From Amphiscolops sp. MND2022 (taxonomy: Eukaryota): 64,000 nucleotides of DNA. Both the position numbers and the translations under genes were made by a program. The DNA lies in NCBI GenBank assembly GCA_964187785.1, contig OZ076409.1, positions 992,001 through 1,056,000 of the forward strand, in the 5' to 3' direction. The notes beneath the pieces are model-generated. The model saw nothing but the letters and a program-made list of their open reading frames with translations. It made no database searches and was not told the origin of the DNA. This document shows, piece by piece, positions 12,642 to 13,365 of this stretch (positions are counted from its first letter, which is position 1; each line of letters starts with the position of its first letter).

Positions 12642-13365
12642 ACACGTCTAAATACCGTGTCTTCCCGCTTAAGAAAAGTGTTCTGTTTGAAACAGACAAA
12701 AGTGAATAGTAGCGAGGAGTTATTTATAGACGGCAGAGTTTGACACTTAGGTCTTTACCGTCTCTTCTTGCAAGGTAATGTAGCACACGTCTAAAAACCG
12801 TGTCTTCCTGCTAAATAAAAGTGATCTCTTTGAGACCAAGAAAAAAGGAAAATAGTAGCAGGGAGTTATTTATAGACGGCAGAGTTTGACACTTAGGTCT
12901 TTACCGTCTCTTCTTGCCTGAGAAAGAGAAAGTTAAAAAAAAAGTTAAGTAAAGGCAAGGTTACACGTCCAAAACCCGTGTCTTCCTACCAAAAGAAAAA
13001 AGTGATCTGAATGGCCAGTTCAGAACAATGAGAAGAATAAAGGTAGGGAGTTATTTATACACGGCAGAGTTTGATGCAAACCGTCGTTTGATCTTTACCG
13101 TGTCTTTGTCAAACTTTGTGACAAAAATTGTAATATACGTCTATACACCGTATCTTCGTTGAGCTATGCAACGGAGTTATTTATACACGGCAGAGATTGA
13201 TACTGAGATCGTTACCGTGTCTTCTTGCAAGGATAAAATTGAATACGCACGTCCAAAACCCGTGCCTTCCTGCTAGATAAAAGTGATCTGTTTTAGATCG
13301 ATGAAAAATGAGAGCAGGGAGTTATTTATACACGGCAGAGTTTGATACTGAGATCGTTACCGTGT
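12642..13365 (-). ncRNA. Array of five covarying structured-RNA motifs upstream of env (unknown class)
   Basis: Units at 12642-12763, 12785-12909, 12963-13103, 13135-13220, 13247-13365. Invariant GGAGTTATTTATA and CGGCAGAG; stems show compensatory changes. Functional strand assumed to be the element sense strand. Confidence 0.6.

Follow-up and report, generated by a model that had tools for sequence, protein, structure and literature searches.

What is the diverged tandem repeat that precedes the envelope gene of an endogenous retrovirus in Amphiscolops sp. MND2022, and what might it do for the retrovirus? Cis-acting RNA elements for export, translation and packaging are well studied in vertebrate retroviruses; to our knowledge, cis-acting RNA control elements are almost unknown in the env-bearing retroelements of invertebrates. 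We analysed a window of 64,000 nt (contig OZ076409.1, positions 992,001 to 1,056,000) within a 1.07 Gb assembly. An earlier note had described the repeat as an array of an unrecognised structured RNA ahead of env and had suggested a new ribozyme, an ENE-like stability element or an IRES, or else tandem internal promoters. The structured, covarying array ahead of env, without an Rfam family, stands; the ribozyme, the ENE and the TATA promoters are not supported. The array looks like a new, unnamed cis-acting RNA element.

The retrovirus that carries the array

The array lies inside a Ty3/gypsy-type endogenous retrovirus of about 19 kb, located on the minus strand of the window, which is the sense strand throughout this text. 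Its main features are listed here by position in the window.

6505 to about 8690 and 23572 to about 25757: LTRs, with an exact run of 888 nt and few mismatches
23202..21937, minus: gag, which matches Retrotrans_gag and has one CCHC knuckle
minus: pol, 1819 aa, with protease, RT, RNase H and integrase
13454..13852, minus: ORF132, third and last of the paralogous accessory ORFs that precede the array
12359..13453, minus: ATG-free sense stretch that runs from the end of ORF132 to the start of env and includes the whole array
13373..13395, minus: candidate 3' splice site, a motif made of a long pyrimidine run and then AG, directly before the first hairpin
12642..13372, minus: five-unit structured repeat array, delimited by anchors, unit alignment and covariation
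10223..12358, minus: env, 711 aa, matching PF24664 Monjiviricetes_fusion (E 3.8e-39)

The gene order is pol, ORF98, ORF71, ORF107, ORF106, ORF132, array and env, followed downstream by ORF153 and an ORF with a TRAF/MATH domain. A primer-binding site follows the 5' LTR. The five small ORFs after pol (98, 71, 107, 106 and 132 aa) gave no matches in a Pfam search, and an Atlas search with ORF107 and ORF71 gave no lead. ORF132 is similar to ORF107 and ORF106, a similarity established through ORF154 of the sister family described below. The retrovirus has many copies and is young: of 260 candidates for the array region, at least 40 were scored at 95–100% identity. We considered the array as an internal polypurine tract and rejected this, as the retrovirus's own tract beside the 3' LTR, GGGTGAGA, is unlike the array.

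With its gag, pol and PF24664 env, the element is of the same kind as the Ty3/gypsy and BEL/Pao elements with a chuvirus-like glycoprotein. Chuvirus-like glycoproteins adjoining gypsy pol have already been reported (PMC13524379), in a paper whose available part mentions no tandem repeats, stem-loops, splicing or TRAF and leaves the array and the accessory genes undescribed.

Organization of the array

Five occurrences of the invariant A/T-rich motif TTATTTATA (plus strand), at 12720, 12866, 13051, 13177 and 13322, anchor the five units, which in gene sense are ordered from U5 to U1. In plus-strand order, each unit consists of hairpin 1, a variable stem 2, the invariant A/T-rich motif and hairpin 3. 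This is the layout that the earlier note had read from the letters, and alignment and covariation bear it out.

12642-12784, 12785-12962, 12963-13134, 13135-13246 and 13247-13372, minus: units 1 to 5, set by the TTATTTATA anchors
12642..12660, 12785-12803, 12963-12981, 13135-13153 and 13247-13265, minus: hairpin 1, 5 bp with a 9-nt loop
12661..12719, 12804-12865, 12982-13050, 13154-13176 and 13266-13321, minus: stem 2, a 9-bp base helix and a variable upper hairpin
12716..12727, 12862-12873, 13047-13058, 13173-13184 and 13318-13329, minus: A-rich single-stranded tail after the core hairpin (sense ...AUAAAUAACUCC), invariant in the five units

The units are diverged, with a mean column identity of 63%. 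Tandem Repeats Finder reported only the first two (period 146, 1.9 copies), because the others have diverged. The 9-bp base helix of stem 2 includes pairing between the CTTC that follows hairpin 1 and the GGAG that precedes the motif. The inner part of stem 2 has U-rich loops in four of the five units; unit 4 (13154-13176) lacks them, its upper and inner part being deleted while a closed hairpin is kept. In units 2 and 3, hairpin 3 is followed by a fourth stem. Since hairpins 1 and 3 have similar arms, the unit can be read as two half-units, each a hairpin plus a stem.

Pairing and covariation

The alignment of the five units was used to map four helices, namely hairpin 1, the 9-bp base helix of stem 2, and both the lower and the upper stem of hairpin 3. 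Together they comprise 23 pairs and 112 cells, 99.1% of which are standard pairs, although such cell counts overstate the independent events because the copies, all from a single genome, have common ancestry; our estimate is of about nine independent both-side changes in all. Both sides have changed in 8 of the 23 pairs, including two of the five in hairpin 1 (100% of cells paired) and four of the nine in the base of stem 2 (97.6%). None of 500 column shuffles reached the observed percentage of pairing, the count of both-side changes or the covariation score, which upholds the earlier statement that pairing survives sequence change. The exchanges on which that statement had been based, ACACG/CGTGT, ATACG/CGTAT and GCACG/CGTGC, the arms of stem 2, AGACGG/CCGTCT vs ACACGG/CCGTGT and GAC/GTC vs GAT/ATC, are all present in the sequence. 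When the partners were slid by 1–3 columns as a control, pairing fell to 33–55%, with zero or one pair changed on both sides. Folding was also more stable than that of 20 dinucleotide shuffles for each strand (z = -4.09 for the plus strand and -3.32 for the minus strand). The pairing in the array is thus under selection.

The core hairpin

Hairpin 3 and the A-rich tail are the real core of the unit, whereas hairpin 1 and stem 2 are additions specific to the window family; the earlier note had listed all of these parts and missed hairpin 3 as the core. The core hairpins, with their scores under the covariance model R1, are as follows.

13330..13365, minus: core hairpin of unit 5, 76.4 bits over 13318-13368
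13185..13220, minus: core hairpin of unit 4, 76.9 bits over 13173-13223, 93–97% identical to units of the sister family
13059..13103, minus: core hairpin of unit 3, 65.3 bits, with an extra 5-bp stem in place of the apical loop
12874..12909, minus: core hairpin of unit 2, 71.0 bits
12728..12763, minus: core hairpin of unit 1, 71.0 bits

On the sense strand, unit 5 folds into a 7-bp lower stem including one U.G pair, a 2x6 internal loop, a 3-bp upper stem and a 6-nt loop. Relative to units 3–5, unit 2 has G-C in the lower stem and C-G in the upper stem, both compensated. These two compensating changes arose separately, since subfamily copies of the element show intermediate combinations, with the G-C pair in the lower stem together with a T-A pair in the upper stem. 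The extra stem of unit 3, CAAAC/GTTTG, becomes CGAAC/GTTCG in other genomic copies, a change from A-T to G-C on both sides.

Across 223 units in the genome, 45 distinct forms of the core were found, and the 13 forms seen at least twice were used as the core fold set; the 32 singletons were left out as likely decay. All 13 forms adopt the sense fold with a 7-bp lower stem containing one invariant U.G pair and a 3-bp upper stem, and 100% of their 130 cells are paired. Only two of the ten pairs covary, the core being almost invariant, so that its support comes from conservation more than from covariation. The exact core pattern matched 1222 times genome-wide, compared to none for the reversed pattern. 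R1, which was built from the 13 forms, found exactly the five window units and seven units in one sister locus; elsewhere in the window it gave nothing except one row with E 0.48 inside pol, and hairpin 1 went undetected by it, as fits an addition specific to this family. A core with the innermost lower-stem pair changed on both sides gave no matches genome-wide, and the core pattern had no matches in either the viral contig or the metagenome contig collection.

Variation among genomic copies

Thirty genomic copies were aligned over 12400-13600. All five core hairpins were kept in all 30 copies (150 units, 16 distinct forms), and variability in the array was 2–6 times lower than in the flanks:

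env-side flank: 70 of 242 columns variable
ORF132-side flank, partly coding: 89 of 235 columns variable
paired array positions: 20 of 314 columns variable
A/T-rich motif: 3 of 40 columns variable
hairpin-3 internal loop: 4 of 38 columns variable
other (unpaired) array positions: 44 of 332 columns variable

One change, from C-G to T-A, was present in three copies. The array sequence is under selection among the copies. What is conserved is a compensated hairpin of about 35 nt with an A-rich tail, less variable than the neighbouring coding DNA and, as described next, common to two families.

Related families in the same genome

The search with Env gave 221 homologues, and two of these, P0004 and P0009, are encoded in the same genome by separate multi-copy families; P0002 and P0003, with Env identities of 71% and 65%, come from other species. 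All comparisons below were made within this one genome, and the copies are related. In the sister family, whose Env is 60% identical to that of the window, 6–16 tandem units of 51–60 nt lie between pol and env. Each sister unit consists of hairpin 3 and the A/T-rich motif; hairpin 1 is absent, and stem 2 is missing from all 73 units examined. These 73 units come from seven loci and have 29 forms, with most of the variation in the apical loop. The tail reads UAAAUAAC, UAAAAAAC and similar. By blastn, the env genes of the two families are 67% identical over 1917 nt, and the window matches the sister hairpin units at 89–93% over 45 nt and 94–97% over 35 nt; beyond env and the hairpin units there were only a few short, low-scoring matches (40–56 nt, 78–83%).

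The order of genes in the sister family is pol, ..., array, ORF72, ORF154, a 76-nt repeat in two copies and env. ORF71 and ORF72 are 40% identical, and ORF107, ORF106 and ORF132 all match ORF154. The array thus follows the accessory ORFs in the window family, whereas it precedes them in the sister family, and this difference in gene order means that no single neighbour goes with the array. What the two families share is an ATG-free stretch, with the array at its head, that runs on to the next cistron.

The third family, with an Env 57% identical to that of the window, has in the same place before env an unrelated repeat of 168 nt in 2.6 copies. This repeat has hairpins of its own and a pseudoknot-like arrangement; its overall fold (z = -1.35) was not better than that of shuffles. 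R1 found no core hairpin among eight loci of this family. A likeness between the core and a hairpin of the 168-nt repeat was considered and dropped: it amounts to a shared 8-mer in opposite orientation, at chance level by a rough estimate. Some hairpin-rich tandem repeat is present in the env leader of all three related families.

One sister copy, L043, lacks gag and pol and has the primer-binding site joined directly to the array; the adjoining LTR of 2076 nt is 99.95% identical to its partner. We considered L043 as an amplified non-autonomous form and dropped this, the junction being unique: it was covered by one of 55 matches, and the others match only the side with the primer site and the LTR. 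The junction does not lie at canonical splice signals.

The start-codon-free leader

The sense strand of the window leader contains no ATG in 1095 nt, compared to 16.6 expected from composition, and none of 5000 shuffles was as low. The other five orderings of A, T and G each occur 5–22 times, and the antisense strand contains 15 ATG. The non-repeat parts of the leader alone contain none vs 4.8 expected (35 of 5000 shuffles as low). In the sister family, the array region has no sense ATG in 801 nt (13.2 expected) and 21 on the antisense strand, and a full-length copy has none in the 522 nt up to the ORF72 start. The env leader of the third family has one in 548 nt vs 8.7 expected, with six on the antisense strand. 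Upstream, the stretch from the start of ORF71 to env has 11 ATG in about 2.5 kb, five of which open ORFs; in env there are 59 within 2.1 kb. The depletion is limited to the coding strand, as in a leader that is scanned, and constitutes the signature of a sense-strand RNA scanned by ribosomes. The earlier suggestion that the array, lying before env, serves the expression of env-class RNA fits such a leader. Leaky scanning over 900 nt in rice tungro bacilliform virus (RTBV) likewise depends on ORFs without internal AUG, according to the available part of one report (PMC5902531).

The AG of the candidate 3' splice site is unchanged in all 30 copies. A similar pyrimidine run with AG lies directly before the first sister hairpin, another lies before ORF71, and a candidate GU-type donor overlaps the primer-binding site. 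Many sister units end, in the sense direction, in a U run and CAG just before the next hairpin. Two predicted exon-exon junctions, searched as spliced retrocopies with at most one mismatch, gave no matches, a result that is uninformative. Judging from these motifs and from the depletion of ATG, the RNA strand is presumably the sense strand, the splice sites are candidates, and the array would be present in mature mRNA.

The wobble pairs do not favour the sense strand. Besides 147 Watson-Crick pairs, the mapped stems contain eight G.T combinations that are valid only on the plus strand and two valid only on the minus strand; among single changes between copies there are eight plus-only wobbles, three minus-only wobbles, six mismatches and one full compensation. 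Together with the lower folding energy of the plus strand, these counts would suit folding of the plus strand, either as an antisense transcript or as minus-strand cDNA during reverse transcription. However, the wobble counts are low, a single repeated column supplies several of them, the sense core has an invariant U.G of its own, the plus strand shows no avoidance of ATG, and no antisense gene or promoter is evident. We consider it very unlikely that the plus strand is the one that folds.

Comparison with known RNA families

Searches agreed with the earlier description of the RNA as unrecognised. Rfam 15 gave no matches at gathering score in the whole window, and at E ≤ 10 over 12200-13800 the only matches were SurC (E 5.3, 15.9 bits vs 80) and sR3 (E 9.3, 10.8 bits vs 41), neither of them credible. 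With permissive filters, the same region gave no Rfam match at E ≤ 10 to hammerhead, twister, pistol, hatchet or HDV-like ribozymes, and none of the ENE type. The array could have been taken for a self-cleaving ribozyme or an ENE-type stability element from its A-rich linker after a stem and from the U-rich inner loops of stem 2. ENEs clamp an A-rich tract or poly(A) tail by a conserved U-rich internal loop that lies between two stems. The ENE reading fails because the U-rich loops here are not conserved: confined to stem 2, they are missing from unit 4 and from all 73 sister units. Cleavage within an mRNA leader would in turn destroy the message. Either identity is extremely unlikely.

Translational enhancers of the Gtx type act through rRNA complementarity. 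An IRES or enhancer working through 18S complementarity was considered here and rejected: complements to the 18S-like gene of this genome reach at most 8–10 nt and fall in a different place in each unit, and shuffled units performed equally well in 41, 6 and 127 of 200 trials. Pairing of the internal loop with the leader was rejected as well, since the complement of the loop occurs once on the sense strand, inside gag, and the leader lacks it.

Possible functions of the array

We tentatively read the array as a multi-copy, protein-binding RNA module that sits in the env-class mRNA leader, acts in cis in the sense orientation and raises expression; this is the reading we prefer, and we hold it with limited confidence. 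The differing place of the array in the window and sister families, the lack of the hairpin in the third family, the low covariation of the core and the wobble pairs all count against it. As a cis-acting structured RNA, the array would belong to the gene-sense transcripts of the retrovirus itself (minus strand of the window). Each unit would present one conserved hairpin (7-bp lower stem, asymmetric loop, 3-bp upper stem and variable apical loop) and an unpaired A-rich tail, and would therefore provide one of five identical docking sites here, or of 6–16 in the sister family. The start-codon-free leader probably begins right after the candidate 3' splice site, in which case the 5' untranslated region of an env-class subgenomic mRNA would open with the array; the array would also lie within the full-length RNA. 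Multivalent recruitment of an RNA-binding protein, of the host or encoded by the element, seems the most likely mechanism. Such a protein might raise expression post-transcriptionally, by promoting translation through or past the very long leader, or the export of incompletely spliced RNA. Control of translation or expression of the downstream cistrons is our first choice, because in each of the three families the ATG-free env leader keeps structured tandem repeats; export, the control of splicing, and packaging are serious competitors. A hairpin module multiplied 5–16 times in a start-codon-free leader offers a small, testable handle on how env is expressed from a 19 kb element that has at least five extra genes and, if it works as a portable expression element, could serve as a tool.

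The Rev response element and the direct repeats of Rous sarcoma virus are structured RNAs that bind several copies of a protein and allow incompletely spliced RNA to be expressed. The array might be an invertebrate counterpart of Rev/RRE or of a CTE, that is, a response element for a host factor or an accessory protein (the ORF71/72 or ORF107/154 families) that turns on the export or the translation of an env-class mRNA that is polycistronic and depleted of AUG. The window element likewise has accessory ORFs, but these gave no Pfam or Atlas lead as RNA-binding proteins, and the array has no sequence or structure likeness to the Rev response element or the Rous sarcoma virus repeats; we regard this version as rather unlikely. 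If true, it would make Ty3/gypsy elements with a chuvirus env "complex" retroviruses with a new RNA-protein control module. Alternatively, an array located directly downstream of a 3' splice site might bind splicing factors, or hide or mimic sites, balancing unspliced against env-class RNA. The motifs that abut the first hairpin in both families would suit such a regulator of splicing, as would the U run and CAG of many sister units; however, the latter is missing from the sister units of 58–60 nt and from the window family, and the splice sites are candidates at the level of motifs, which leaves splicing control unlikely. Unlikely to the same degree is a signal for packaging or dimerisation, in which the zinc knuckle of Gag would bind the repeated hairpins and select genomic RNA. 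Gag has the one CCHC knuckle, and the internal loop exposes UCUG in the sense strand, which we take to be a target of gammaretrovirus nucleocapsid. Repeated short structured motifs have been described as packaging signals of RNA viruses, in the available part of the source (PMC8206606). Against such a role, the array is far from the 5' leader, and the ATG-free signature suggests that it is also in a translated subgenomic mRNA, so that it would confer no selectivity for genomic RNA.

The untranslated parts of LTR elements often contain tandem repeats, and the range of 6–16 copies in the sister family could be that of a functionless repeat whose hairpins are by-products of its origin. Compensating changes, an array less variable than the flanking coding sequence, and 89–97% identity of units between families whose env DNA is 67% identical all argue against this, and we judge it highly improbable. 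A further reading is function at the level of DNA, as tandem transcription-factor or insulator sites of the Su(Hw) kind or as tandem TATA promoters for env, akin to the internal promoters proposed earlier. The sense sequence TATAAATA occurs five times, once per unit, and nowhere else in the whole element; the third-family repeat also has TATAAAA; and the long, strongly conserved core could be a protein site, as a duplex DNA array would have it. In the available part of one account, the gypsy insulator comprises 12 binding motifs within 340 bp of transcribed leader, and the Su(Hw) insulator of gypsy and the 5'-UTR repeats of ZAM, Idefix and gtwin are short tandem repeats in a transcribed, untranslated part of insect env-bearing Ty3/gypsy elements, a setting similar to that of the array (PMC3383448). 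Those are duplex sites for zinc-finger proteins that need no pairing, whereas both-side compensation in the four helices here points to pairing of a single strand and is not predicted by a duplex site. The TATA promoter is not supported: the homologous place in the sister family reads GGGTAAATAAC, GGGTAAAAAAC or GGGTGAAAAAT (sense), which weakens it, and no start-site motif stands at a fixed distance, because the 30 nt downstream of TATAAATA are the variable, covarying stem 2. A DNA-level element is accordingly quite unlikely.

Relation to other viral systems

Two described systems are close to parts of the preferred reading of the array as a multi-copy docking RNA in a scanned leader. The gamma-CTE in gammaretroviral pol needs four to eight tandem copies for its effect (PMC4174252, available part). 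The array resembles CTE and gamma-CTE as a retroviral RNA stem acting in cis, with an internal loop that is predicted here to dock a host factor, and better so in several copies. The hallmark of the MPMV CTE is AAGACA in the internal loop, as far as the available parts of two sources go (PMC4174252, PMC4330393). In the window, by contrast, the letters AAGACA are part of covarying stems and vary to AAGAGA, AAGATA or AAGGCA; they are absent from the sister family, and the array lacks the two-fold symmetric double loop. We considered a CTE of the MPMV type, a direct binder of NXF1/NXT1, and set it aside, AAGACA not being a conserved loop here.

RTBV, as portrayed in the available part of PMC5902531, resembles the window element in that a long AUG-free stretch lets ribosomes reach downstream cistrons. 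It differs in being a plant pararetrovirus with a structured leader that contains short ORFs and is shunted, and it has no repeated hairpin module. The accessory ORFs of the window element share the RTBV-like trait of being almost free of internal ATG, and this AUG-depleted run of small ORFs suggests polycistronic translation by leaky scanning, which would be unusual in an animal retroelement.

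Start Codons and Accessory Genes

Upstream of env, the main retroelement, an endogenous retrovirus of the Ty3/gypsy type, has few start codons. Across the run from the small accessory ORFs (ORF71, ORF107, ORF106 and ORF132) to env (window 12359-14935, minus strand), only 11 sense ATGs occur in about 2.5 kb, and ORF starts account for five of these; env alone has 59. This scarcity suggests that the run is carried on a polycistronic mRNA translated through leaky scanning or reinitiation, which would be uncommon for an animal retroelement.

ORF107, ORF106 and ORF132 (window 13454-14671, minus strand) are paralogues. 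The sister family, a related retrovirus family in the same genome, has just one counterpart, ORF154, to which each of them is similar, so the accessory gene has undergone triplication in the main element. Neither Pfam nor the Atlas gave any lead on this ORF family. Downstream of env and ORF153 lies a TRAF/MATH-domain ORF (PF21355, 1.9e-22; window 8750-9802, minus strand), with homologous ORFs also downstream of env in the sister family and in a third related family. The domain is a captured signalling domain of host type.

Repeats and Hairpin Arrays

Three further repeats were found in these families:

Window 7640-8035 and 24707-25102: 86-nt repeat of the main element, 4.6 copies in each LTR, 98% matches
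L037 (sister-family locus) 3720-3872: separate 76-nt repeat, two copies, located between ORF154 and env and containing small palindromes
L053 (third-family locus) 5539-5966: unrelated 168-nt repeat, 2.6 copies, before env

The 86-nt repeat contains short palindromes and is probably an enhancer-type repeat of U3. Each third-family unit contains TATAAAA and a stem with the loop sequence GAGGTT, which could pair with AACCTC further downstream in a pseudoknot-like arrangement. The third-family leader before env is likewise poor in ATG.

One sister-family copy (L043 2083-2130; G000:C6:55737782-55737829) lacks gag-pol and carries an array of 15 units; its primer-binding site runs straight into a hairpin unit, midway along that unit. 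This junction is unique genome-wide, being covered by 1 of 55 matches. Elsewhere, three hairpin arrays lie on one strand, spaced about 4 kb apart (G000:C1:65344559-65353414), in what looks like a partial element duplicated in tandem.

Other Elements in the Window

A second LTR element (window 31955-54066, plus strand) has direct repeats 20.7 kb apart, a 7.4 kb internal duplication (98-99% identity), fragmented RT/RNase H/integrase and a Macro domain in one ORF (39356-40177, E 1.4e-05). The window also holds a 172-nt satellite (56316-58607; 13.2 copies, 91% matches) and a tandemly duplicated 2.6 kb segment (641-5823; 97-100% identity), each copy of which includes 8.8 copies of a 22-nt repeat.
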